A DNA stretch of 64,000 nt, from positions 1,712 through 65,711 of the forward strand of contig DASRZL010000126.1 in NCBI GenBank assembly GCA_035686425.1. The letters are read 5' to 3'. The DNA is from Thermoleophilia bacterium. Its GTDB lineage: Bacteria; Actinomycetota; Thermoleophilia; UBA2241. Below are positions 1 to 12,926 of this stretch, piece after piece. A model generated the notes under the pieces. It worked only from the letters and a program-made list of their open reading frames with translations, did no database searches and had not been told where the DNA came from. Position numbers and translations under genes: made by a program. The stretch's first letter is position 1. The number at the start of each line of letters is the position of its first letter.

Positions 1-665
1 ACGTCGCCGTCGCCGACGTCGATGAGGAGCGTGCCGCCGCGTCCGCCGCCGCTCTCGCCGGTCAAGGGGTCGACACGCTCGGCCTCGCCGTCGACGTGAC
101 CGACGAGCGTTCAGTGCGCCGCGCCGTCGCCGACGTGCTCGCGGCCTTCTCCCGGATCGACATCCTGGTCAACGCCGCCGGGGTGACTGTGCGCAAGCGG
201 GCGGAGGATCTCCCGGTGGACGACTGGCGGCGCGTCCTGGAGATCAACGCCACCGGCACCTTCGTCTGCTGCCAGGCCGTCGGCGCGGAGATGGCGCGCA
301 GCGGCGGGGGCGCGATCGTCAATCTGTCCTCCGTGCGGGGGCGGTTCGGCGCGACCTTCGGGCAGGCGGAGTACTCGGCGAGCAAGGGCGCGGTCGACTC
401 CCTGACTCGCTCGCTCGCCGCGCAGTGGGCCGAGCTCGGTATCCGTGTGAACGCCGTCGCGCCGACCTTCGTCGAGACCGACCTCACGCGGGCCGTGCTC
501 GCCGACGAAGCCTTCGCCGCCGGCCTGCGCGCAAGCATTCCCATGGGGCGCTGGGCCGAGGCTGCCGACGTGGTCGGTCCCGTGCTCTTCCTCGTCTCGC
601 CGGCGGCGGCGTTCGTCACCGGCCAGATCCTCTACGTGGACGGCGGTCTCACGGCGCGGGTCTGA
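1..665 (+). CDS. Short-chain dehydrogenase/reductase (SDR), 5'-truncated by window edge (in frame from base 3)
   Basis: ORF translation shows SDR catalytic region (NAAG, S...YSASK) and C-terminal VTGQILYVDGG; reading frame is open to the window start. Confidence 0.8.
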   Translation, partial: VAVADVDEERAAASAAALAGQGVDTLGLAVDVTDERSVRRAVADVLAAFSRIDILVNAAGVTVRKRAEDLPVDDWRRVLEINATGTFVCCQAVGAEMARSGGGAIVNLSSVRGRFGATFGQAEYSASKGAVDSLTRSLAAQWAELGIRVNAVAPTFVETDLTRAVLADEAFAAGLRASIPMGRWAEAADVVGPVLFLVSPAAAFVTGQILYVDGGLTARV

Positions 666-917
666 GCGTTCGCGGACCCCGCGGCAGGGCGCTCGGGGGG
701 ATGCTTGACCTGCTCCCGGCCATCTGCAAGAGTGTTCGCATCATGGACTAGCAGTTCCGTATCGTGGGCATTTCGCCCTTGAGCGGACGGCCGGATGGGA
801 CCCCGGTGACGGGGTCGCCGGGCTGTGGGCGAGCTCGCTCGTCACAGCCGCATCGCGCGAAAGCCGCTCCCCGGTCCGTCGCCCGTGAGCCGGACACGAC
901 GCGAGAGGAGACGTGCG

Positions 918-1718
918 ATGGCTGAGCGTGAGATCTGGAGCGTCGACAAGATCCGCGGCCTGTTCGATCTGACCGGCAAGGTCGCGATCGTGACCGGCGG
1001 GTCGGGGGCCTTCGGCCACGACGCCGCCAAGGCGATGGCCGCCTTCGGTGCGAGTGTGGTCGTCACGAGCCGGCGCGCCGAGAACGTCGAGTCGGCCGCG
1101 GCCGACATCGCCGAGGCGACCGGCGCGCGGGTGCTGCCCGTCTCGTGCGATGCGGTCGACCCGGAGAGCGTCGAGGCCATGGTACAGAAGACCGTCGACG
1201 AGTTCGGCAAGGTCGACATCCTCGTCACTGCCGCCGGCCAGGCCAACCGCTTCGCCGCCGAGGAGTTCCCGCTCGACGAGTGGCAGAAGGTCATGGACTC
1301 GCTCGTCAAGGGTACGTATGTCGTCTGCCAGGCTGTCGGCAAACGCATGATCGCCCAGGGCGGCGGCAAGATCATCACCGTCGGCTCCGTGCGCGGCGAG
1401 CTCGGGCATCCCGGAGGGTATTCCGCCTACGGCACCGCCAAGGGCGCGGTACACCTGCTCACCAAGCAACTCGCCGCCGAGTGGGCCAAGTACCACATCA
1501 ACGTGAACTCCATCGCCCCCTGCATCTTCTGGACCCCGCTCACGCAGCAGGTCCTCGACGACCCCGAGCTCTACAAGATCTTCATGCAGCGCATCCCGTG
1601 GGGCCGCGCCGCGGATCCTCAGGACTTCATGGGCGCGACGGTCTACCTCGCCTCGGCGGCGTCCGACTTCGTCACCGGGGACATCCTGATGGTCGACGGC
1701 GGCAGCACCGCCGCCTGA
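918..1718 (+). CDS. Short-chain dehydrogenase/reductase (SDR family oxidoreductase)
   Basis: N-terminal Rossmann TGGSGAFG, catalytic YxxxK (YSAYGTAKGA); ATG at 918 preceded by GAGAGGAG RBS; the longer ORF upstream of 918 is GC-frame read-through. Confidence 0.8.
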   Translation: MAEREIWSVDKIRGLFDLTGKVAIVTGGSGAFGHDAAKAMAAFGASVVVTSRRAENVESAAADIAEATGARVLPVSCDAVDPESVEAMVQKTVDEFGKVDILVTAAGQANRFAAEEFPLDEWQKVMDSLVKGTYVVCQAVGKRMIAQGGGKIITVGSVRGELGHPGGYSAYGTAKGAVHLLTKQLAAEWAKYHINVNSIAPCIFWTPLTQQVLDDPELYKIFMQRIPWGRAADPQDFMGATVYLASAASDFVTGDILMVDGGSTAA

Positions 1719-1741
1719 CCCTCCGGCTGAAGGGGGCTGCA

Positions 1742-2692
1742 GTGAGCACCACGGGTGCTGAGTGCGTCGCCGTCATCGGGGGCGGCATGATGGGCGTCGG
1801 CGTGGCCCAGGTCTTCGCCGCCGCCGGGCATGAGGTCGCGCTCCAGGACGTGTCTCAGGAGGCCCTCGAGCGTGCCCCGGGCACGCTCGCGGCGAACCTC
1901 GCCTTCCTCGCCGAGCACGGTCTCTTCTCGGCCGACGGCGTCGCTGACGCCGTCGGCCGCGTGCGCACCACCGCGGACCTTGCGGAGGCGGCCGCCGGCG
2001 CCGACGTCGTCGTCGAGTGCGTGTTCGAGGATCTCACCCTCAAGCAAGAGGTCTTCGAGCGTCTCGACGCCGTCTGCCCGGTCGAGACGATCCTGTGCAC
2101 CAATACATCGGTGATGGGCATCACCGAGATCGGCGCCCGCACCGTGCGCAAGGAGCGGGTCGTTGGCACGCACTTCTGGAACCCGCCGTACCTGATCCCG
2201 CTGGTCGAAGTCGTGCGCACCGAGCACGTCGATCCAGTCGTGGTCGAGCGCACCATGGACCTGCTGCGACGCGTGGGCAAGCACCCGATCGTCTGCAAGA
2301 AGGACGTCCCTGGCTTCGTCGCCAATCGCCTGCAGCATGCCCTCTGGCGGGAGGCCATCTCGATCGTCGAGCGGGGCATCGCCGACGCGGAGACGGTGGA
2401 CGAGAGCATTCGCTACGGTCCCGGCCTTCGCCTGCCGATCCTGGCGCCGATGGAGAACGCGGACATGGTGGGTCTCGACCTCACGCTGGCGATCCACGAC
2501 TACATCCTGCCGCACCTCGAAGCCTCGGGCGAGCCGTCGCCGCTCTTGCGCGCGAAGGTCGAGGCCGGGGATCTCGGGTTCAAGAGCGGCAAGGGGTTCG
2601 CCGAGTGGACGCCCGAGTCGGCCGAGGCGTCGCGGAGGCGTTTGGCGGCCTACCTGGTGCACGTGCTGGGCGATCCCGAGCGGGGGTTCTGA
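1742..2692 (+). CDS. 3-hydroxyacyl-CoA dehydrogenase family protein (L-carnitine dehydrogenase-like)
   Basis: VAVIGGGMMGVGVAQVFAAAGHEV NAD-binding N-terminus, 3HCDH N- and C-domains, about 316 aa; GTG start after AAGGGGG RBS. Confidence 0.75.
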   Translation: MSTTGAECVAVIGGGMMGVGVAQVFAAAGHEVALQDVSQEALERAPGTLAANLAFLAEHGLFSADGVADAVGRVRTTADLAEAAAGADVVVECVFEDLTLKQEVFERLDAVCPVETILCTNTSVMGITEIGARTVRKERVVGTHFWNPPYLIPLVEVVRTEHVDPVVVERTMDLLRRVGKHPIVCKKDVPGFVANRLQHALWREAISIVERGIADAETVDESIRYGPGLRLPILAPMENADMVGLDLTLAIHDYILPHLEASGEPSPLLRAKVEAGDLGFKSGKGFAEWTPESAEASRRRLAAYLVHVLGDPERGF

Positions 2693-2714
2693 GACGGCCG
2701 AGCGGCGCGACGGA

Positions 2715-3443
2715 GTGCAGGTCCTCTCGCGCGCGGCGCTGTTGCTGCGGGCGCTCTCCGTCACGCCCGAGGGCTTGACTCCCATCGCGCTCGCCGACCA
2801 GGTCGGCCTGCCGCGCTCCACCTGCTACCGCATCGTCGGCGCGCTCTGCCAGGAGGGGCTCATGCGCCTCTCGCCCTCGGGCAAGCTGCACATCGGCGCC
2901 GGTCTCATCAGCCTCGCCGCCGCCGGCCGGCGCGATCTGCGGCACGAGTCGGCTCCGCTCCTCGAGCGCCTGTCACTCGAGCTGCACGAGACCGTGGAGC
3001 TCGTCGTGCTCGACGGCGACGAGGCGCTGTTCACCGACCAGTACGTCCCGCAACGCTCGCTGCGCGTGGTGGCGGAGGTGGGCGACCGCTTTCCGCTCTA
3101 CTGCACCGCGTGCGGCAAGGCGCTGCTGGCCGAGCTGCCGGACGCGGAGGCGGCGCGTCTGGTACCGCCGCGTCTCGAGCCGCTCACCAGCCACACCATC
3201 GTCGACCGGGACGCGCTCTTCCGGGAGGTCGAGGAGGCGCGGATCACCGGCGTGGCCTACGACCACCAGGAACACACGCTCGGCGTATCCGCGGTGGGCG
3301 CCGCCCTCAAGGATGCCGGCGGCGCCATGGCCGCCATCACCGTGGCCATGCCGGCCGCTCGCCTCGACGGCCACGAGGAGCGCATCTCCGCCGCGCTCCT
3401 ACGTACTCGCGACGACATCCAGCAGGCCATCGACGCGAGCTGA
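2715..3443 (+). CDS. IclR family transcriptional regulator
   Basis: N-terminal wHTH (VQVLSRAALLLRAL...GLPRSTCYRIV) and C-terminal IclR effector domain; start choice (GTG 2715) uncertain. Confidence 0.75.
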   Translation: MQVLSRAALLLRALSVTPEGLTPIALADQVGLPRSTCYRIVGALCQEGLMRLSPSGKLHIGAGLISLAAAGRRDLRHESAPLLERLSLELHETVELVVLDGDEALFTDQYVPQRSLRVVAEVGDRFPLYCTACGKALLAELPDAEAARLVPPRLEPLTSHTIVDRDALFREVEEARITGVAYDHQEHTLGVSAVGAALKDAGGAMAAITVAMPAARLDGHEERISAALLRTRDDIQQAIDAS

Positions 3444-3642
3444 CCGGCGGCCGCCTCCAACGCCGGATCCGTATTGACAGCGGATTCGGGACGTCTTAGC
3501 GTATCCACGATACGGCATTTCGTGTCCGAGATGCGGATAGTCGAGCACCGGGCGCACGGCCGCCACATCATCGTCGGCGGGCAGTCCGGGTGCGCGAGAG
3601 CCCGTCTGCCGTGACTGTAACGAGACCGAGGAGAGTAAGCCC

Positions 3643-4602
3643 ATGGGCAAGAAGGTATTCGTTGACCTCACACATCCTTTCAGCGCGGAGATTCCCCGGT
3701 GGCCGTACTTCGTGAAGCCGGTCATCGACTCCATGCACACCCTGGCGAAGGGCGGTGTCCTCACGCAACGCATCGACTGCGTGCAGCACACCGGCACCCA
3801 CGCCGACGCTCCTCGTCACGTCATGGAGCGCGAGTTCAACGGCAAACGTGCCCGCTACACGCACGAGATGCCGGTCGACGCCTACACCGGCGACGCCGTC
3901 TGCCTCGACATCCAGATCGAGAAGTGGGGCCTCATCCTGCCCGCGCATATCGAGGACGCCTGCGAGCGCGCCGGCATCAAGCCTGAGGAGCTCAAGGGCA
4001 TGGTCGTGTGCCTCAACACCGGCATGCACCGCAAGTTCGACGACTCCATGGACTACTACCAGTACTCCTGCGGCACCGGCGTCGAGGTCGGCAGGTGGTT
4101 CGTCGAAAGGCAGGTCAAGGTCGTGGCCATGGACATGCAGGCCCTCGACCATCCGCTCCACACCGCGATGGGCAAGAACGGCCCGCCGCAGATGAACCTC
4201 CCGGGCGCCTCCGGCCGTCCGATCACCGAGGAGTACATCGAGAAGTACGGCATCGAGGCCTACGCCGAGTTCGAGAAGGCCGTCTACATCGAGGTGCACG
4301 GCCAGGACGCCTACGACGCCAAGTTCGGCGACCTCGAGGCGATCGGCTGCGAGGGGACCTGGGAGCCCTGCCACAAGCAGATGCTCGGCCACGGCATCGT
4401 CGGCGTCGAGAACCTCGGCGGCGACCTGGACAAGGTCAGGGGCAAGCGGTTCCGCTTCTTCTGCTTCCCGATCCGCTGGTATATGGGCGACGGCTCCATG
4501 GTGCGCTGCGCCGCCGAGATCGACGAGGACGACCTGAACGACGTGCCGGATCGCACGTACACCTACGCCGGCACCGGCTACGGTCCCGGAGCCGGCTACT
4601 GA
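3643..4602 (+). CDS. Cyclase family protein (kynurenine formamidase-like, PF04199)
   Basis: Conserved HTGTHADAP cyclase motif; strong GAGGAG RBS; gene visibly lower in GC than its neighbours. Confidence 0.75.
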   Translation: MGKKVFVDLTHPFSAEIPRWPYFVKPVIDSMHTLAKGGVLTQRIDCVQHTGTHADAPRHVMEREFNGKRARYTHEMPVDAYTGDAVCLDIQIEKWGLILPAHIEDACERAGIKPEELKGMVVCLNTGMHRKFDDSMDYYQYSCGTGVEVGRWFVERQVKVVAMDMQALDHPLHTAMGKNGPPQMNLPGASGRPITEEYIEKYGIEAYAEFEKAVYIEVHGQDAYDAKFGDLEAIGCEGTWEPCHKQMLGHGIVGVENLGGDLDKVRGKRFRFFCFPIRWYMGDGSMVRCAAEIDEDDLNDVPDRTYTYAGTGYGPGAGY

Positions 4603-4732
4603 TCCGCCTGTCGCCCCCAGGGGCCGACGGCGTGGCGCCCGTTGGCGTTCGCAACGGGACGGCACGGTGTGGCGCTTGACGGCGTTCGTATTCATTCGGA
4701 GAAGCCGGACACGGCTCGAGAAGGAGTGAGGC

Positions 4733-5083
4733 ATGGAGGTCACCAGGTACGACGAGGCCCCGAGCTACGAGGCCCCCGGACATTTCGACGTGTACGGCCT
4801 GCGCCTGCAGGGGTTCGAGGTCAGCAAGACCCGCAACTTCTGGATGAGCATCTCTCACTTCCTGCCCGGGGGCGGCTGCGAGTACGTCGCCACCCCGATC
4901 GAGAAGGTCTACTTCGTGCTCGAGGGTGAAGTCACCGTCAAGACGGAGGAGGGCGAGGTCATCCTCAAGAAGTGGGACTCCATCTACCTGGCGCCGGACG
5001 AGGCCCGCTCGATCCTGAACCACACCAACTCGCCGGCGACGATGCTCGTCGCAATCCCCTATCCGGAGCCCCGCGAGTTCTGA
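4733..5083 (+). CDS. Cupin domain protein
   Basis: Small 116-aa beta-barrel protein with cupin-like motif, GGAG RBS. Confidence 0.55.
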   Translation: MEVTRYDEAPSYEAPGHFDVYGLRLQGFEVSKTRNFWMSISHFLPGGGCEYVATPIEKVYFVLEGEVTVKTEEGEVILKKWDSIYLAPDEARSILNHTNSPATMLVAIPYPEPREF

Positions 5084-5224
5084 GCCGGGACTGCGGGAGC
5101 GTGTCCCGGGTTCTCCGGCGGGGACGACGCGCGCACGCGGACGGCACGGGGACGGACCTCCGCCCTCGCGTGTGCACCCGCGCGCCAGACAATTCCCGAC
5201 CCCACGACCTCCGAGGAGGCCATC

Positions 5225-6055
5225 ATGCCCAGACCGATCATCACCGCGGCGCTCACGGGACCCGTGGCGACCAAGGCCGACAACGCCGGCATGCCGGGGA
5301 ACGTGGCGGAGATCGCCGCGGACGCCAAGGCCTGCCACGAGGCCGGCGCGGCCGTCATCCACATCCACCTGCGTGACGATCGGGGCGAAATGACGGCCGA
5401 CCTCGGCGTCGCGCGGCGCACGGTCGAGGCCGTTCGCGAGGTGTGCCCGGGCATCACGCAGCTCTCCACGGGCGGGCTCCAGTTCACCTACGAAGAACGC
5501 ATGCGCCTGGTCGAGGCGAAGCCCGCGATGGCCACGCTCAACCCTTGCACGATGACCTTCGCCGCCGCGGAGTTCCGCAACCCTCCCAAGCAGATGATGG
5601 AGCTGGCGGCCCGGATGATCGAGCTCGGCGTCAAGCCCGAGGTCGAGATCTACGACACCGGCCATCTCGAGATGATGCTCTACCTGCTGCACAAGGAACT
5701 CCTCGTCCCGCCGCTGCAGGTCTCGTTCGTGATGGGCGTCCGCGGCGGCATGAAGGGCGACCCGGGACTCCTCGCGTACCTCGTACGCGAACTGCCCGAG
5801 GGGACCAGCTGGCAGGTCATCGGCGTGGCCAGGGCCAACCTCCCGATGACGGCGGTCGGCCTGGCCATGGGGGGGAACGCGCGCACCGGCATGGAGGACA
5901 CCCTCGCGCTCGAGAAGGGTGTCCCTGCCGAGTCGAACCGGCAGCTGGTCGAGCGCCTCGTCGGCATCGCCCAGTCGATGCAACTGCAGCCCGCGTCCGT
6001 CGCCGAAGTCGTGGAGCGGCTCCAGCTCCATCCGGAGCTCGTCAACGGAGCCTGA
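5225..6055 (+). CDS. BKACE family enzyme (3-keto-5-aminohexanoate cleavage enzyme-like, DUF849)
   Basis: N-terminal PIITAALTG...HIHLRD and overall 276-aa length typical of Kce/BKACE TIM-barrel enzymes. Confidence 0.75.
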   Translation: MPRPIITAALTGPVATKADNAGMPGNVAEIAADAKACHEAGAAVIHIHLRDDRGEMTADLGVARRTVEAVREVCPGITQLSTGGLQFTYEERMRLVEAKPAMATLNPCTMTFAAAEFRNPPKQMMELAARMIELGVKPEVEIYDTGHLEMMLYLLHKELLVPPLQVSFVMGVRGGMKGDPGLLAYLVRELPEGTSWQVIGVARANLPMTAVGLAMGGNARTGMEDTLALEKGVPAESNRQLVERLVGIAQSMQLQPASVAEVVERLQLHPELVNGA

Positions 6056-6096
6056 GGCAAGCGCGGTCCGAGCGTACCGCGGGGCGGAACCGTTGC

Positions 6097-6124
6097 TTGA
6101 CAGTCTGGAGCCCGGCTATATGAT
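6097..6124 (+). promoter_or_regulatory. Near-consensus sigma-70-type promoter (TTGACA-N16-TATGAT) upstream of the Liv-type ABC operon
   Basis: Sequence read directly; followed by the two CCGTAT(C/G)GTGG boxes. Confidence 0.5.
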
Positions 6125-6345
6125 GCCCGTATCGTGGGAGGGAACGTCCGTATGGTGGATGGCCATGGAGGTGGTATCGCACCGTTGACTAGGCTCTGAG
6201 AGGTGCGCGCGCGGTGTTCTGAGGCAGTCGGTACGGGCGCCCGTTCGCAGCACCGGCATTCGAGAAGGCCATCGGGGGGGTCCCGGCCCGCCGCGTCGCC
6301 CGGCTTGGGCGACGGACGGGGGCGGGACCACGTTAAGGAGGCGGT

Positions 6346-7716
6346 ATGAGTTCAGAGGACAAAACCCGCAAGACGACCGAGACGGGCATCAAGACGCCGA
6401 TCTCTCGTCGTGACTTCCTCAAGACGGCCGGCGCCACCGGCCTTGCTCTGGGCGCCACCGGTGGGCTCGGGGGCGTGCTCGCCGCGTGCGGGGGCGAGAG
6501 CAGCGACACCGCCAGTGAGGGCGAAGGCCGCGAGATCAAGATCGGCTTCGTGTCGCCGCTCACCGGTCCGTTGGCGGCCTTCGGCGAGGCGGACCAGTTC
6601 TGCGTCGACCAGTGGAGCGAAGCTGTCGCCGACGGCCTCGCCACGGCCGACGGCGCGGTGCACCCGATCAACTTCATCATCAAGGACTCGCAGTCAGACT
6701 CGAACCGCGCCGCGACCGTGGCCGGCGACCTCATCAACAACGACGCCGTGGACATCATGATGGTCGCCTCCACGCCGGACACGGTGCCGCCGGTGGCGGA
6801 CCAGTGCGAGGCGTTCGGCGTCCCGTGCGTGTCCAACGACTGTCCGTGGCAGGCCTACTTCTTCGGCCGCGGCGGCGATCCCGAGAACCCATTCAAGTGG
6901 ACCTACCACTCCTTCTGGGGTTCCGAGTCGGCGGCCGCCGTGTTCATGTCCATGTGGGACAGCTTCCCGACCAACAAGAAGATCGGCGTGATGTGGCCGA
7001 ACGACGCCGACGGCAACGCGTGGGCCGACGCCGAGACGGGCATGCCCACCTTCTGGGGCCCCGCCGGCTACAAGTTCACCGACCCCGGCCGGTATCAGAA
7101 CGGCACGGAGGACTTCACCTCCCAGATCTCCAAGTTCAAGGCCGCAGGCGTTGACATCCTCAACGGCGTCATGATCCCGCCCGACTTCACGAACTTCTGG
7201 AAGCAGGCCTATCAGCAGGGCCTCAAGCCCCCGTTGGTCACCATCGCGAAGGCTCTCCTCTTCCCGTCGGCCCTCGAGGCTGTTGGCGACATCGGCTACG
7301 GCCTCACCACTGAGGTGTGGTGGACGCCGCAGCATCCGTTCACCTCGTCACTCACCGGCCAGACCAGCCAGGAGATCGGCGACGCCTACGAGTCGACGAC
7401 CGGGAAGCAGTGGACGCAGCCGATCATGCACTACGCCGTGTTCGAGGTCGTGGCCGACGCCATCAAGCGCACCGAGAACATCGACGACAAAGAGCAGATC
7501 ATCGCCGCCGTCCAAGCCACCGACATCGAGACCATCAGCGGCCCCGTCCACTGGAACGGAAGCGACCTGAACCCGGTCCCGAACGTCTGCATCACGCCGC
7601 TCGTGGGCGGCCAGTGGGTCCAGGGGGAGAGCTACCCGTTCGACCTCAAGATCGTGGAGAACTCCATCGCCCCGGAGGTGCCCACCAACGCCGAGATCGC
7701 GCAGATGGAATACTGA
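6346..7716 (+). CDS. ABC transporter substrate-binding protein (branched-chain amino acid/amide-binding family), Tat-lipoprotein signal
   Basis: RRDFLKTAGATGLALGA Tat motif followed by LAACGG lipobox; type I periplasmic binding fold; first gene of a Liv-type operon. Confidence 0.8.
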   Translation: MSSEDKTRKTTETGIKTPISRRDFLKTAGATGLALGATGGLGGVLAACGGESSDTASEGEGREIKIGFVSPLTGPLAAFGEADQFCVDQWSEAVADGLATADGAVHPINFIIKDSQSDSNRAATVAGDLINNDAVDIMMVASTPDTVPPVADQCEAFGVPCVSNDCPWQAYFFGRGGDPENPFKWTYHSFWGSESAAAVFMSMWDSFPTNKKIGVMWPNDADGNAWADAETGMPTFWGPAGYKFTDPGRYQNGTEDFTSQISKFKAAGVDILNGVMIPPDFTNFWKQAYQQGLKPPLVTIAKALLFPSALEAVGDIGYGLTTEVWWTPQHPFTSSLTGQTSQEIGDAYESTTGKQWTQPIMHYAVFEVVADAIKRTENIDDKEQIIAAVQATDIETISGPVHWNGSDLNPVPNVCITPLVGGQWVQGESYPFDLKIVENSIAPEVPTNAEIAQMEY

Positions 7717-7792
7717 GTGTGGCTGACCCGACCCCGCTGCCCAATCCTGCTCCGCCGCGTCACCACGAGGTAGAAGCGATGCAGGATGGTAG

Positions 7793-8524
7793 ATGCTCAT
7801 GACCGTGGTGCTCCAGACCACCGGACTCAACAAGTCCTTCGGTGGCGTGAAGGTCATCGACGACTTGAGCGTGCAGCTCCACGAAGGCGAAGCACTGGGC
7901 ATCGTCGGGCCGAACGGCGCCGGGAAGACGACGTTCTTCAACCTCGTCACCGGCGTGTATCGGCCCGACTCGGGTCGGGTCGAGTTCAAGGGCAAGGACG
8001 TGACGCACGTTGCGCGGCAGGGCATCTGCCGGCTCGGACTGGGACGGACTTACCAGATCCCGAAGCCGTTCTCGGACATGAGCGTGTTCGAGAACGTGCT
8101 GGTGTGCGCCGCGTATGCCCGCGGCGCGAGCGAGCGCGCCAGCTACCGGCGCTGCGTCGAGGTGCTCGAGCAGACGCGGCTCGCCCACAAGGCCAATCAC
8201 CAGGCGGGCGCCCTGCCCCTGCTCGACCGCAAGCGGCTCGAGCTGGCCAGGGCGCTCGCCGGCGATCCCACGGTATTGCTCCTGGACGAGATCGCCGGCG
8301 GCCTCACCGAGACCGAGGTCGAGGTCCTCATCGGCACCATCAAGGAGCTGCGCCAGGGCGGTATCTCGATCGTCTGGATCGAGCACATCGTCCACGCGCT
8401 GCTCGCGGTCGTCGATCGCATCTGCGCCATCAGCTTCGGCGCCCTGCTCATCGAGGGCGACCCCAACGAGGTCATGTGCAGCGACGAAGTACAGGCCTGC
8501 TACATGGGGGGGACGCCGATATGA
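7793..8524 (+). CDS. ABC transporter ATP-binding protein (LivG-like)
   Basis: Walker A GPNGAGKTT, signature and Walker B LLLDE; start could be ATG 7799. Confidence 0.85.
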   Translation: MLMTVVLQTTGLNKSFGGVKVIDDLSVQLHEGEALGIVGPNGAGKTTFFNLVTGVYRPDSGRVEFKGKDVTHVARQGICRLGLGRTYQIPKPFSDMSVFENVLVCAAYARGASERASYRRCVEVLEQTRLAHKANHQAGALPLLDRKRLELARALAGDPTVLLLDEIAGGLTETEVEVLIGTIKELRQGGISIVWIEHIVHALLAVVDRICAISFGALLIEGDPNEVMCSDEVQACYMGGTPI

Positions 8525-9219
8525 GCATCCTGGAGGTCAAGGACGTCGACGTCTTCTACGGCGACTTCCAGGCCCTGTTCTCGGTCAGCTTCTCCGTCGA
8601 GGAAGGACAGACGTTCGCGTTCATCGGCGCCAACGGCGGCGGCAAGTCCACGCTGCTCAAGACGCTCGCCGGCCTGCTCAGGCCGACGTCGGGCGAGGTG
8701 CTGTTCCAGGGCGAGGCCATCAACAACGTGCCGGCCCACACGCGTGTGGGCATGGGCATCGCCCTCGTGCCCGAGGGACGTCGCGTGTTCCCGAGCCTCA
8801 CGGTCCACGAGAACCTGCTCATCGGCGCCTACGGGGGCCGCAAGGGCGAGTGGAACGTCGAGTCGGTGCTGGAGCTCTTCCCGCTTCTCAGGCCTCTCAT
8901 CAAGCGTCAGGCCTCCAGCCTGTCGGGCGGCGAGCAGCAAGCGCTGGCCATCGGGCGGGCGCTCATGTCCAACCCTCACCTCATCCTCCTGGACGAAGTC
9001 TCGCTCGGTCTCGCACCCGTCGTCATCAAGCGCATCTACGAGGCGATGGGCCACCTGGTGCAGAAGGGCACGACCATCCTCGTGGTCGAGCAAGACGTGC
9101 AGCACGTGCTCACGGTGGCCGACTACGTCGCCTGCTTCCTCGAGGGCAGGATCTCGCTGGAGGGCCAGCCCGGCGACCTGAGTTCCGAGCAAATCACCGC
9201 GGCCTACTTCGGGATGTGA
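8521..9219 (+). CDS. ABC transporter ATP-binding protein (LivF-like)
   Basis: GANGGGKST Walker A, LSGGEQQ signature, ILLDE Walker B; ATGA overlap with upstream ATPase. Confidence 0.85.
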   Translation: MSILEVKDVDVFYGDFQALFSVSFSVEEGQTFAFIGANGGGKSTLLKTLAGLLRPTSGEVLFQGEAINNVPAHTRVGMGIALVPEGRRVFPSLTVHENLLIGAYGGRKGEWNVESVLELFPLLRPLIKRQASSLSGGEQQALAIGRALMSNPHLILLDEVSLGLAPVVIKRIYEAMGHLVQKGTTILVVEQDVQHVLTVADYVACFLEGRISLEGQPGDLSSEQITAAYFGM

Positions 9220-9223
9220 TCGC

Positions 9224-10096
9224 ATGGATTGGGTGAATGTCGCCGTACAGGGGGTCCTCCTGGGCGGGCTGTTCGCACTGTTCGCGACCGGGCTCGCCCT
9301 CGTCTTCGGCGTGATGCGCCTGGTCAACCTCGCTCACGGCGACCTCGGCATCCTCGCCGCGTTCGTCGCCCTGTTTCTGCTGGACAGCTTCAGCCTGGGC
9401 GTGTTCTGGGCGTCCCTCGCGTCAATCGCCATCATGTTCTGCGTGGGCTACGTGCTGCAGCGCGGGCTGCTCAACTACACCATCGGCACCGACGATACGC
9501 GGCCGATCCTGGTCACGTTCGGTTTGTCGATCATCATCCAGAACGCGCTCATCATGCAGTTCTCGGCCGACTCACAGGGCCTTGACGCGGGAGCCATCGA
9601 GAACGCCAGCGTCCGCATCACGGACCAGCTCGCCGTCGGCTGGTACCCGCTGATCGTGTTCGGCGTCGCCGTCGCGGTCATCGCGGCGCTCCAGCTGTTC
9701 CTCAACAGGACGACCCTCGGCCGTGCCTTCCGGGCCACCTCCGACGATCAGGAAGCGGCCGAGCTCATGGGCATCAACAACCGCCACATCTACAGCCTGG
9801 CCATGGCCATCGCCCTGGCCATCGTCGCCCTCGCCGGGATCCTGCTCGCGGTCCGCACGACGTTCGACCCGAGTCAGGGCCCGTTCCGCCTCATCTTCGC
9901 CTTCGAGGCGGTCATCATGGGCGGCATGGGCTCCATCTGGGGCACGCTCATCGGCGGCATCATCCTCGGCGTCTCGCAGACCTTGGGCGCCCAGGCCTTC
10001 GGCGCCGGCTGGGGCATCTTCGTGGGGCACGTCGTGTTCCTGGCGGTCCTGGCCTTCAAGCCGAGCGGCTTCTTCGCGAAGACGGTGACGGCATGA
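9224..10096 (+). CDS. Branched-chain amino acid ABC transporter permease (LivH-like)
   Basis: Polytopic membrane protein with LVNLAHGD motif typical of LivH. Confidence 0.8.
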   Translation: MDWVNVAVQGVLLGGLFALFATGLALVFGVMRLVNLAHGDLGILAAFVALFLLDSFSLGVFWASLASIAIMFCVGYVLQRGLLNYTIGTDDTRPILVTFGLSIIIQNALIMQFSADSQGLDAGAIENASVRITDQLAVGWYPLIVFGVAVAVIAALQLFLNRTTLGRAFRATSDDQEAAELMGINNRHIYSLAMAIALAIVALAGILLAVRTTFDPSQGPFRLIFAFEAVIMGGMGSIWGTLIGGIILGVSQTLGAQAFGAGWGIFVGHVVFLAVLAFKPSGFFAKTVTA

Positions 10097-11184
10097 GCAC
10101 GCCCTTGGAGTCCATGCCCTCCAAAGGTATCCCGGCGTTCCGCATCGCGCGGTCGGCGCCGATGCACCGCTACGTGCTCATCGTGTTCCTGGCGGTCGTC
10201 GCCGTGCTCGCCAGTGTGCCCTTCTGGGCGCAGACCGGCACGATCCGGACCTTGGTGACCTTCTTCACCCTGCTGGCCCTCGCCCAGATGTGGAACCTGC
10301 TCGGCGGCTACGCCGGCCTCATCTCCGTAGGCCAGCAGGCCTACGTCGGCCTCGGCGCCTACGGCGTGTGGCTGATCGCCGACATCCTGGGCCTCCACCC
10401 CTTCATCGCGGTGCCACTCGCCGGCGTACTGGCGGCGGTCGTCGCGCTGCCGGTCGGCCCGCTGCTGTTCCGCCTCAAAGGCGGCTACTTCGCCATCGGC
10501 ACGTGGGTCGTGGCTGAGGTCGTGCGGCTGATCGTCGCCAACATCCAGGCGACGGGCGGAGGCTCCGGCAAGACCATCCTGTCGGCCGCCCGCCTGCCCA
10601 TCGACACGCGCATCCAGGGCACGTACTTCCTGGGGCTGGGCGTCGCCGTCGGCTCCATCCTCCTGGTGTACTTCCTCCTGCGCTCGCGCGTAGGCTTGGC
10701 CCTCACGGCCATCCGGGACAACGACCTGGCCGCGCAGAGCTCCGGCGTGAACGTGTTCCGATCCAAGCTGCTCGTCTACGTGATCGCGGCCTTCGGCTGC
10801 GGCGCCATGGGCGCCGTCGTCGCCCTGAACCTGCTCCGCATCCAGCCGACGGCCGCGTTCAGCATCAACTGGACGGCGTACGCGCTGTTCATCGTGGTCA
10901 TCGGCGGCTTCGGCACGATCGAGGGTCCGATCATCGGCTCGGTCATCTACTTCGCGCTCCTGCAGAACCTGAGTCAGTACGGCACGTCGTACCTGCTCCT
11001 GCTCGGCGTGATCGCTGTGATCATGGCGGCGAAGGCGCCGCGCGGCATCTGGGGCTTCGTCGCGAAGCGCTGGAACATCCACCTGTTCCCGGTCCGGCGC
11101 CGGCTTGTGTTGGAGGCGCCACCCCCGGGTGACGACGGTGGGCCGGCAGACGCGTCGGATCCGCCCCTCGCGGAGCCCGCCTGA
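10093..11184 (+). CDS. Branched-chain amino acid ABC transporter permease (LivM-like)
   Basis: Hydrophobic 363-aa protein, overlaps LivH-like stop; completes SBP-ATPase-ATPase-permease-permease operon. Confidence 0.8.
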   Translation: MSTPLESMPSKGIPAFRIARSAPMHRYVLIVFLAVVAVLASVPFWAQTGTIRTLVTFFTLLALAQMWNLLGGYAGLISVGQQAYVGLGAYGVWLIADILGLHPFIAVPLAGVLAAVVALPVGPLLFRLKGGYFAIGTWVVAEVVRLIVANIQATGGGSGKTILSAARLPIDTRIQGTYFLGLGVAVGSILLVYFLLRSRVGLALTAIRDNDLAAQSSGVNVFRSKLLVYVIAAFGCGAMGAVVALNLLRIQPTAAFSINWTAYALFIVVIGGFGTIEGPIIGSVIYFALLQNLSQYGTSYLLLLGVIAVIMAAKAPRGIWGFVAKRWNIHLFPVRRRLVLEAPPPGDDGGPADASDPPLAEPA

Positions 11185-11364
11185 CGACGGCGCGTGTGAG
11201 GTCCTGAGGCCCGCGCCGCCGGCGCGGCGTCCGGGGCGCGGGGATGACGCGCCGGCTGGCCGGCGCCACATGATGCGGCTCTTCTGAGCCGCCCGCGGTG
11301 AGACCGCGGACCCTCGCCTCGGGGCCGGGGCCGGGGCCGGGAAGCACGACGATGGAGGAGACTC

Positions 11365-12144
11365 GTGATCGAGACCGATCGCGACGTGGAGAAGGAACAA
11401 CGCAACGGCGTCCAGGTGCTCGCCCGGGCCGCCACGATCCTGCGGCTGCTGGCGGCCGACTCGTCGGGAGGTTTGACCTTCAGCGAGCTGGTCGCACGGT
11501 CCGGTCTGCCACGGACCACGGTCCACCGCATTCGCGGCGCCCTCGAGCACGAGGACTTCATCTACACCGACGCCGCCACCGGCCGTCTTCACCTGGGACC
11601 CGGCATCATGCGCCTCGCCATGGCCAAGCGCGATCTGCCGACGGTCGTGCGGCCGTACCTCGAGCAGCTGGCGCGCGAGCTCAACGAGACCGTCGATCTT
11701 GGAGTGCTGGACGGCATGCACGTGCTCTTCATCGCCCAGCATCCGGCGCCACAGCGCTCGCTCATGGTGGTCTCGCGCGTCGGCGCCCGCTTCCCGGCGT
11801 ACTGCACGGCCAACGGCAAGGCGCTGCTCGCCCAGCTCCCCCAGGACGAGATCAAGCCCCGGCTTCCCCAGCGACTGGAGACGCCGGCGCAGCACACACC
11901 CATCAGCCGCAAGGCGCTCCTGGCCGAGCTGGAGGAGGTGCGCGACAGCGGGCTCGCCTACGACTGCGAGGAGCATCGCACCGGCATCTGCAGCGTCGGC
12001 GTGGCCATCACCGACATCGATGGGAGCTCCGCAGCCATCTCCGTACCGATGCCTGCGGCCCGCTTCCACGAGGACCCGGACACCGTCGCCGCGGCGCTGC
12101 TGCGCGTCCGCGACGAGGTCCAGATCGCCCTCCACAACGGCTGA
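11365..12144 (+). CDS. IclR family transcriptional regulator (second paralog)
   Basis: GVQVLARAATILRLLA...GLPRTTVHRI wHTH plus IclR effector domain; clearly paralogous to the 2715..3443 product. Confidence 0.8.
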   Translation: MIETDRDVEKEQRNGVQVLARAATILRLLAADSSGGLTFSELVARSGLPRTTVHRIRGALEHEDFIYTDAATGRLHLGPGIMRLAMAKRDLPTVVRPYLEQLARELNETVDLGVLDGMHVLFIAQHPAPQRSLMVVSRVGARFPAYCTANGKALLAQLPQDEIKPRLPQRLETPAQHTPISRKALLAELEEVRDSGLAYDCEEHRTGICSVGVAITDIDGSSAAISVPMPAARFHEDPDTVAAALLRVRDEVQIALHNG

Positions 12145-12314
12145 TCTGCGGGCGACGCACGGCGCTGCCGGGTACGTCGGGGACGCCGCATCCCGACCTT
12201 CCGTCGTCGCCGTTGTCGCCAGTCCGCGCCGCGGCAACACGGCGACGCTTGCCGACGGTGCGCTGCTCGCGGAGGCCCGTCGCCTCGGCGGCGAGCTCGC
12301 CGCGGCCCTGGGCC

Positions 12315-12926
12315 TCAGCCGGGCCTGATCACCCGCGTCTCGGTGACGATCGCCGTCACCGGAAGGTCATGCGTCTCGCACACGATCCGGGGCATCAGTT
12401 GCGTCTCGAACGCGAGGGCGACCCAGGGCGTGCCCGGGCGGGTGAGCCGAAGGTAGGTGTCGTAGAAGCCGCCGCCGTAGCCGCAGCGGCCTCCCTCCTC
12501 ATCGAACGCCGAACCCGGTACGAACACGATGTCCATCTCCTCCGGAGGGATCTCGAGCAGCCCCTCTCGCGGCTCGGGGATGCCCCAGGTCCCGGCGACG
12601 AGGTCCGAGGCCGGATCGGTGACGCGGAACGCCTCCATCGTCCGGGCGCTGCGGATGCGCGGCAGGCAGAGCGTCTTGCCGGCCGCGAGCACCCGCTCCG
12701 CGAGCGGCGCGGTGTCGAGCTCGGTGCGGAACGAGGCGAACGACATGACGGTACCGGCGGCGGCCAGCTCGGGGAGGCTGGCGGCGCGGGCGCACACGGC
12801 CGCGCTGAGGCGTTCGCGCTCCGCCGCGGGCAGGGCGGCACGAGCGTCGAGGCCGCAGCGGCGTGCCTCCGTCTTGAGGAGGCCCTCGCCGTCTTCGTCG
12901 GGTCGTTGTTCTCGTTCTGGCGTCAT
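12315..12926 (-). CDS. 5-formyltetrahydrofolate cyclo-ligase
   Basis: MTHFS family motifs (GxGYYD-like GGGFYDTYL near the C-terminus); start taken at internal ATG (MTPEREQ). Confidence 0.7.
   Translation of the reverse strand: MTPEREQRPDEDGEGLLKTEARRCGLDARAALPAAERERLSAAVCARAASLPELAAAGTVMSFASFRTELDTAPLAERVLAAGKTLCLPRIRSARTMEAFRVTDPASDLVAGTWGIPEPREGLLEIPPEEMDIVFVPGSAFDEEGGRCGYGGGFYDTYLRLTRPGTPWVALAFETQLMPRIVCETHDLPVTAIVTETRVIRPG

Follow-up and report, generated by a model that had tools for sequence, protein, structure and literature searches.

Paired operator-like sites behind three predicted promoters of a catabolic island in a Thermoleophilia bacterium and their probable recognition by IclR-family regulators

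The main (group-1) binding motif of IclR-family regulators has been described as GKTYCRYW3-4RYGRAMC, with the core TYCRY-W3-RYGRA (Suvorova and Gelfand 2021, PMC8222616). Sites in tandem, their centres 18-22 nt apart, were also reported, an arrangement that the authors read as a tetramer seated on one face of the DNA; TtgV, cited in the same article, binds its operator as a tetramer (PMC8222616). Here, a recurrent 11-mer, CCGTATCGTGG, is described from a 64,000-nucleotide stretch of an uncultured Thermoleophilia bacterium (GenBank assembly GCA_035686425.1, contig DASRZL010000126.1, positions 1,712 to 65,711), which is called the window throughout. It occurs in three promoter regions of a catabolic island that carries three paralogous IclR-family genes, named IclR0, IclR1 and IclR2 in the order in which they stand. 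The box is very likely the conserved core of an IclR-family operator, with sites that are paired and placed directly after three predicted promoters.

On comparison with the group-1 operators as published, the box departs from the consensus at a single position, the third central base (C or G instead of W), and its spacing of 21 bp falls within the reported 18-22 nt (PMC8222616). As in the published cases, the sites of the island precede operons for catabolism and transport as well as the operon of the regulator itself, and actinobacterial sites 21 nt apart in the supplementary table, cTTCCACgATGCGGAAt and gTTCCACcATaCGGAtg, are very close to the box (PMC8222616). The operator arrangement follows the published IclR rules closely; it is textbook-like, in an uncultured lineage, and leaves the knowledge of IclR regulators unchanged. 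The group of published look-alikes presumably includes Streptomyces AllR (SCO6246), which a literature search did not confirm. The system also differs from the published group-1 systems in other respects: published sites lie mostly 20-80 nt upstream of the start codon, against 130-220 nt in the window; three paralogous regulators are present in one island; and the host class, Thermoleophilia, is not among the taxa of Table 2 and of one part of Supplementary Table 2 (PMC8222616). A literature search with the box sequences returned only unrelated primer and aptamer matches and none as an operator, and a search on BKACE plus IclR returned nothing relevant.

The best solved-structure match of IclR1 was TtgV, the repressor of the ttgGHI efflux pump of Pseudomonas putida, which is tetrameric (PDB 2XRN, 2XRO). 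The two proteins match over their full length (phmmer E 4.9e-38, residues 1-239 of IclR1 against 2-239 of TtgV) and have the helix GLPRST-x-x-RI in common: the recognition helix GLPRSTCYRIV of IclR1 aligns with GLPRSTVQRII of TtgV, and PRST-x-x-R is kept. The DNA-contact residues compared are those given in the comparative article (PMC8222616). Gln51 of TtgV is replaced by Tyr in IclR1 and by His in IclR0 and IclR2. TtgV controls a divergent RND efflux pump operon, whereas the targets here are catabolic enzymes and an ATP-binding cassette (ABC) importer; the resemblance to TtgV lies in mechanism, not in regulon. The operator of TtgV overlaps the promoter.

Exact copies of CCGTATCGTGG were found in the window at 757-767 (+), 3505-3515 (-) and 6127-6137 (+), against 0.04 expected, and none of 100 dinucleotide-preserving shuffles of the window gave three. 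A copy with one mismatch, CCGTATGGTGG, lies at 6148-6158. According to the gene map of the window, all four copies are intergenic: the first lies between a partial short-chain dehydrogenase/reductase (SDR) gene and the second SDR gene (site 1, ~705-769), the next between IclR1 (2715-3443) and a cyclase-family gene at 3643-4602 (site 2, ~3474-3538), and the last two between a BKACE gene (5225-6055) and a Liv-type ABC binding protein gene at 6346-7716 (site 3, ~6097-6160). At up to two mismatches the pattern was not above chance in the window (47 found, 38 expected), hence the signal resides in the near-exact copies. The sequence-only reading that drew attention to this DNA had claimed one box in three intergenic regions, and these counts bear it out. 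Its finer details fared unevenly. The tandem copies that it saw at site 3 are one exact and one mismatched copy, and the extended 13-mer TCCGTATCGTGGG is present at site 1, while the end bases differ at sites 2 and 3. The element GGCATTTCG, noted after the box at sites 1 and 2, does occur there in the window but is not conserved in the orthologous regions. The same is true of TCCGTAT at 3468-3474, where only gTATTGACA of the -35 region is kept in the orthologues.

Related loci were obtained by a one-genome-per-species scan with an alignment of IclR1 homologues, which gave 66 loci; these stretches of metagenome-assembled genomes (MAGs) carry labels such as L012 and L032, and position 1 of the window corresponds to position 1599 of L001. 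The orthologous set consists of ~25 Thermoleophilia MAG species with the same gene order as the window: IclR0, SDR, SDR, 3-hydroxyacyl-CoA-dehydrogenase-family gene (3HCDH), IclR1, cyclase, cupin, BKACE, binding protein, two ATPases, two permeases and IclR2. The island proteins of these loci are 60-98% identical to those of the window. In essentially all of them the box is found at the same three intergenic positions and in the same orientation. When the regions were aligned on the box, its columns were at least 90% conserved and the flanking columns 30-60%. The conservation of the box against diverged flanks is a clear phylogenetic footprint.

The alignments also showed that the 11-mer, although genuine, is part of a larger unit. 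This unit is a 15-bp pseudo-palindrome, TCCG-yATsG-yGGA, of the type TCCG-N5-CGGA, and it is present in two copies, box A and box B, in each promoter region. The consensus of the six box classes, each with 20-27 orthologues, is (G/T)TCCG(T/C)AT(C/G)G(T/C)GGA. The centres of the two boxes are 21 bp apart, or two helical turns, at all three sites of the window and 20-21 bp apart in the orthologues. A common layout is found at the three sites: TTGAC(A/C), a spacer of 16-17 nt, a -10-like hexamer, box A and box B, with box A starting 1 nt past the predicted -10 hexamer in every case. At sites 2 and 3 the exact 11-mer belongs to the box nearer the promoter, and at site 1 to the distal one. The weaker partner boxes at 734-748 (site 1) and 3524-3538 (site 2) had been missed by the sequence-only reading.

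The predicted promoter of site 1 (705-733, + strand, inferred from consensus) comprises TTGACC (705-710), a 17-nt spacer and AAGAGT (728-733). In the orthologues the second hexamer is ACTAGT in most and CATAGT in others, and the blocks CTTGACCT and CTGCAcTAGT are conserved in 18-20 orthologous regions. It is followed on the + strand by box 1A, GTTCGCATCATGGAC, at 734-748, with a position weight matrix (PWM) score of 18.5, the core of which, TCGCATCATGG, is found exactly or as a close variant in 20/20 orthologous regions. Box 1B, TTCCGTATCGTGGGC, at 755-769 (+, PWM score 20.5), includes the 11-mer at 757-767; in most orthologues this position reads CCGCATCGTGG.

The predicted promoter of site 2 (3474-3502, +) was likewise inferred from consensus and comprises TTGACA (3474-3479), a 17-nt spacer and TAGCGT (3497-3502), and its elements gTATTGACA and TAgCGT are conserved in the orthologues. 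Box 2A, TGCCGTATCGTGGAT, at 3503-3517, adjoins the -10 hexamer, lies on the - strand (PWM score 21.2) and includes the 11-mer at 3505-3515, which is exact in 19/20 orthologous regions; on the plus strand it forms part of the palindrome CGTATC-cac-GATACG. Box 2B, GTCCGAGATGCGGAT, at 3524-3538 (+), is a weaker palindromic box with a PWM score of ~12 on both strands. In the orthologues tCCG..ATGCGGAcAG is conserved at this position, and L022 has CCGTATCGCGG there.

At site 3, the sequence-only reading had placed a near-consensus promoter before the Liv-type ABC operon, and TTGACA-N16-TATGAT was indeed found at 6097-6124 (+; -10 at 6119-6124), with 11/12 consensus matches and both hexamers conserved in 25 orthologous regions. 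Box 3A, GCCCGTATCGTGGGA, at 6125-6139 (+, PWM score 17.9), adjoins the -10 hexamer and includes the 11-mer at 6127-6137, which is exact in 23/27 orthologous regions. Box 3B, GTCCGTATGGTGGAT, at 6146-6160 (+, PWM score 21.8), includes the mismatched copy at 6148-6158; it is conserved, with variation confined to two positions of the 11-mer, the central and the ninth.

The specificity of the motif was assessed with a PWM built from the orthologous box sites, from which sites near distant IclR homologues were excluded. Six matches scored 14 or more in the window; five are boxes, and the sixth, at 9611-9625, is a perfect palindrome, GTCCGCATCACGGAC, inside a permease gene. This candidate was rejected as chance, being lost even in the closest relatives. 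A scan of the 14-64 kb part of the window revealed no other well-scoring site. Across ~1 Mb of related loci, 171/210 PWM sites lie in the 27% of the sequence that a crude gene model leaves as non-coding (P about 5e-61), and the motif is not distributed at random, which is what the sequence-only reading had named as a refutation. Among distant IclR homologues with 40-59% identity, 15/42 have a site no more than 250 nt ahead of their own gene, against an expected 4% (P about 3e-11); these include single-regulator versions of the island and one MAG from Chloroflexia. Since boxes precede the genes of distant homologues, at sites that took no part in building the PWM, the motif travels with this IclR subfamily. 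The proposal of a single operator common to three promoter regions and tied to IclR is supported in silico on four grounds: conservation, register with the promoters, agreement with the published consensus and spacing, and the distant homologues.

The best-supported model is one of protein binding and of repression rather than activation. One or several of the IclR paralogues of the island would, as a tetramer built from two dimers, occupy both boxes on one face of the DNA. The pair of boxes would span the transcription start and the early transcribed region, because the first site begins one base past the -10 hexamer. The bound tetramer would cover the -10/+1 region and block RNA polymerase, and a metabolite of the pathway would release it; the most plausible effector would be phloroglucinol, a related trihydroxybenzene or a ring-cleavage intermediate. 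The predicted targets are the SDR-3HCDH-IclR1 operon, the cyclase-cupin-BKACE operon and the ABC transporter operon, possibly together with IclR2.

Several observations weigh against this model. The promoters are consensus predictions, on which the repressor geometry depends; no other promoter-like block is conserved in these regions, and box A keeps the same register with them at the three sites. The central triplet carries C or G where the published consensus has W, and the strict conservation of the asymmetric TGG half-site is unexplained by a simple symmetric-dimer model. The remaining points concern the identity of the binder. Loci L052/L056 and L059 lack IclR1 between the 3HCDH and cyclase genes, yet they keep boxes at all three sites, IclR0 and IclR2. 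Relatives with a single IclR1-like regulator (e.g. L032) also keep boxes, which makes the binder ambiguous, and the recognition helices of the three paralogues are near-identical: PRSTCYRI in IclR1, PRTTVHRI in IclR2 and PKTTVHRI in IclR0, with PRST(A/V)HRI in single-regulator relatives.

The first candidate binder, IclR1 (2715-3443, +), has the Pfam domains HTH_IclR and IclR_C. Its gene closes the SDR-3HCDH-IclR1 operon, which follows site 1, and stands next to site 2; because it lies in the operon behind site 1, it would be autoregulated. IclR2 (11365-12144, +), the second candidate, was also assigned by Pfam and is 50% identical to IclR1. The two paralogous IclR genes of the sequence-only reading were thus real, though the paralogues number three: IclR0 lies just left of the window (L001 649-1428), upstream of the first SDR, and is 56% identical to IclR2 and 42% to IclR1. 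Neither of the two regulators scanned had an NCBIfam match above the curated cut-offs.

It is quite possible, if short of probable, that the sites are IclR operators of which the main binder is IclR2 and/or IclR0, or that the paralogues share the sites or compete for them according to ligand. The loci without IclR1 and the near-same helices speak for this, as does a box-like site before IclR0 in the source MAG. Other loci point to IclR1: in L028, L032, L033, L039 and L041, which have one IclR1-like regulator nearby, boxes precede that regulator and the transporter. L012 has IclR1 and the adjacent site 2, whereas its relative L061 lacks both, and IclR2 has no upstream box. Neither the recognition helices nor the presence and absence of the paralogues single out one binder. 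Shared or overlapping specificity among the paralogues is likely, judged by the presence/absence patterns and the near-same recognition helices.

The genes of the other two regulators differ in what precedes them. Upstream of IclR0, the source MAG has TTGACC-N17-TACAGT and the box-like TGCCGCATGGTGGAA at L001 442-456 (PWM score 17). In most related MAGs the upstream region is the 3' end of a large gene, and a separate IclR0 promoter, carrying GTTCCGacaagCGGAAC, is found in only a few. Upstream of IclR2, an alignment of orthologues revealed neither a box nor a conserved promoter; the orthologues share, in the spacer at 11185-11364, a GC-rich hairpin (cgccgggggcc...ggcccccggcg) and the ribosome-binding site GATGGAGG. 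This pattern suggests read-through or processing from the transporter operon, and IclR2 is possibly co-transcribed from site 3.

In a second alternative, the boxes would serve activation, like the sites of PobR and PcaU, and an unrecognised promoter would lie beyond them, farther down the long leaders. Some IclR proteins are activators, and the distance between the boxes and the start codons leaves space for another promoter. The three-box operators of PcaU and PobR of Acinetobacter have the same type of half-site, GTNCG-N5-CGNAC, and require one more repeat in addition to the palindrome (PMC8222616). They differ from the arrangement of the island, in which a single -35/-10 pair is conserved and the boxes follow it, as two complete pseudo-palindromes directly after the -10. 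PcaU and PobR are activators that bind upstream of the promoter, and their third box is a single half-site repeat. Besides the fixed register of the TTGAC(A/C) and -10 blocks just before box A, the aligned regions have no conserved -35/-10 pair after box B, and in several orthologues the box of site 2 lies just 44-57 nt before the start codon. Activation in the manner of PobR and PcaU is improbable here.

It was also considered that the box works at the RNA level, as an element shared by the 5' leaders that binds a protein or forms part of a riboswitch. In its favour, transcripts would include box B and some of box A, and the leaders are long, that of the transporter being structured. This reading is very hard to sustain: the strongest box of site 2 is opposite in orientation to its gene, and is conserved so in 19/20 orthologues; pseudo-palindromes at a fixed 21 bp are a geometry of the DNA helix; an Rfam scan of 600-12500 with E up to 1 gave no match for boxes or leaders; and the structured leader begins past box 3B, its covariance model matching that one leader per locus only. 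An alternative sigma factor promoter element, or a remnant of chance or duplication, is just as implausible, for although TATCGT and TATGGT inside the boxes fit the actinobacterial TANNNT -10 pattern, such a -10 at site 2 would face away from the downstream genes, conservation reaches the CCG and GG outside the hexamer, the boxes are in tandem pairs and co-occur with IclR homologues across phyla, chance is excluded by the number of exact copies and by conservation across species, and a duplicated promoter cassette by the mere ~15 bp that the sites have in common.

The leader of the transporter operon is a conserved structured 5' region of ~185 nt (6161-6345), which follows box 3B and leads up to the start codon of the ABC binding protein. 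Its elements are a CGAAC-loop-GUUCG hairpin, the invariant unpaired segment GCCAUCGGGGGGG and a long hairpin, the end of which lies immediately ahead of the AAGGAGG ribosome-binding site. Compensatory changes were found in 20 of its 37 predicted pairs. Of the cells, 90.6% were paired, against 38-47% when the partners were slid, and 0/500 shuffles reached the observed values. A covariance model of the 3' half had one match per locus, to this leader only, including loci outside the training set. The leader is a candidate for an unclassified cis-regulatory RNA. A more elaborate scheme, speculative and rather unlikely, would join these elements: the paired operators would be common targets of all three paralogous IclR repressors, which would either compete as homotetramers or combine in mixed tetramers. 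Each repressor would sense a different polyphenol-derived metabolite, e.g. pyrogallol, phloroglucinol or a ring-cleavage intermediate. Several signals would in this way be integrated at the three promoters, with the structured leader RNA as a second layer of control on the transporter operon.

The genes behind the paired sites fall into three operons, all on the + strand. Operon 1 (918-2692) encodes an SDR (918-1718) and a 3-hydroxyacyl-CoA-dehydrogenase-family protein (1742-2692), besides IclR1. Operon 2 (3643-6055) comprises the cyclase-family, cupin (4733-5083) and BKACE genes, and operon 3 (6346-11184) encodes the binding protein, two ATPases and two permeases of the Liv-type ABC transporter. 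The assignments rest on Pfam and conserved synteny, and for operon 3 also on gene calls on near-identical contigs. The phloroglucinol cluster of Clostridium scatologenes contains SDR, cyclase-family, 3-hydroxyacyl-CoA-dehydrogenase-like and BKACE-family proteins, named PGR, DPGC, HOHD and TAL (Zhou et al. 2023, PMC10470551). Phloroglucinol induces this cluster, which also has a transporter and an uncharacterised regulator of unstated family (PMC10470551). According to Pfam, the same four enzyme families are co-located in the island, and the SDR of the Clostridium cluster is of the phloroglucinol reductase type (PMC10470551); the likeness is one of family composition. It was reported that Trp20 and Tyr22 set CsDPGC, the dihydrophloroglucinol cyclohydrolase, apart from isatin hydrolase (PMC10470551). 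The cyclase of the island has both residues, in EIPRW20PY22F, as matched by residue number. On comparing the two clusters, the cupin, the second SDR and the three IclR genes are extra in the island, and the Liv-type ABC importer replaces the 'major family transporter' of C. scatologenes (PMC10470551). None of the eight island proteins scanned, core enzymes included, scored above the curated cut-offs of NCBIfam, and PDB searches with the cyclase, SDR and BKACE did not confirm orthology to phloroglucinol enzymes and gave no close homologue of the cyclase.

In the related loci L056 (6364-6399) and L059 (6358-6393), a pair of boxes 21 bp apart precedes the genes of a molybdopterin enzyme resembling pyrogallol-phloroglucinol transhydroxylase and of its Fe-S subunit. 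Near the molybdoenzyme lies a further IclR homologue that has a palindromic box to itself, and the regulon appears larger in these genomes.

The sequence-only reading had named carnitine or amino acids among the substrates, a suggestion that was not upheld, as the enzyme set fits phloroglucinol or related polyphenol products instead. The island probably serves polyphenol-derived trihydroxybenzenes. Phloroglucinol or related compounds would be more plausible inducers than carnitine or amino acids, because of the enzyme set, the Trp20/Tyr22 pair and the box pairs before the transhydroxylase-like molybdoenzyme in related MAGs. The regulon model is testable for an uncultured soil lineage, the Thermoleophilia, since it names exact operator pairs, covered promoters and three candidate regulators. 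If the island degrades phloroglucinol, these would be the first candidate regulators and operators proposed for the pathway in the papers searched, and the regulators could serve as parts of a phloroglucinol biosensor. In soils and peat, this pathway is of importance for the turnover of polyphenols (PMC10470551).

Two further observations were made on the IclR genes of the related loci. An extra module, consisting of a distant IclR homologue followed by a paralogous Liv-type binding protein, is present in L008 (734-3052), L022, L025, L035 and L044. The IclR homologue of the module is 45-49% identical to IclR1. The structured leader RNA was not found in these modules in the loci searched, and in L044 a near-box lies between the IclR homologue and the binding-protein genes. 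The other observation concerns the recognition helix of IclR1: in several relatives its codons (YRIVG, window 2828-2838) read TACCGCATCGTGGGC, which is a copy of the box with one mismatch; in L012, L014, L023 and L029 the copy lies at locus position 10114. This is probably a coincidence at the codon level.

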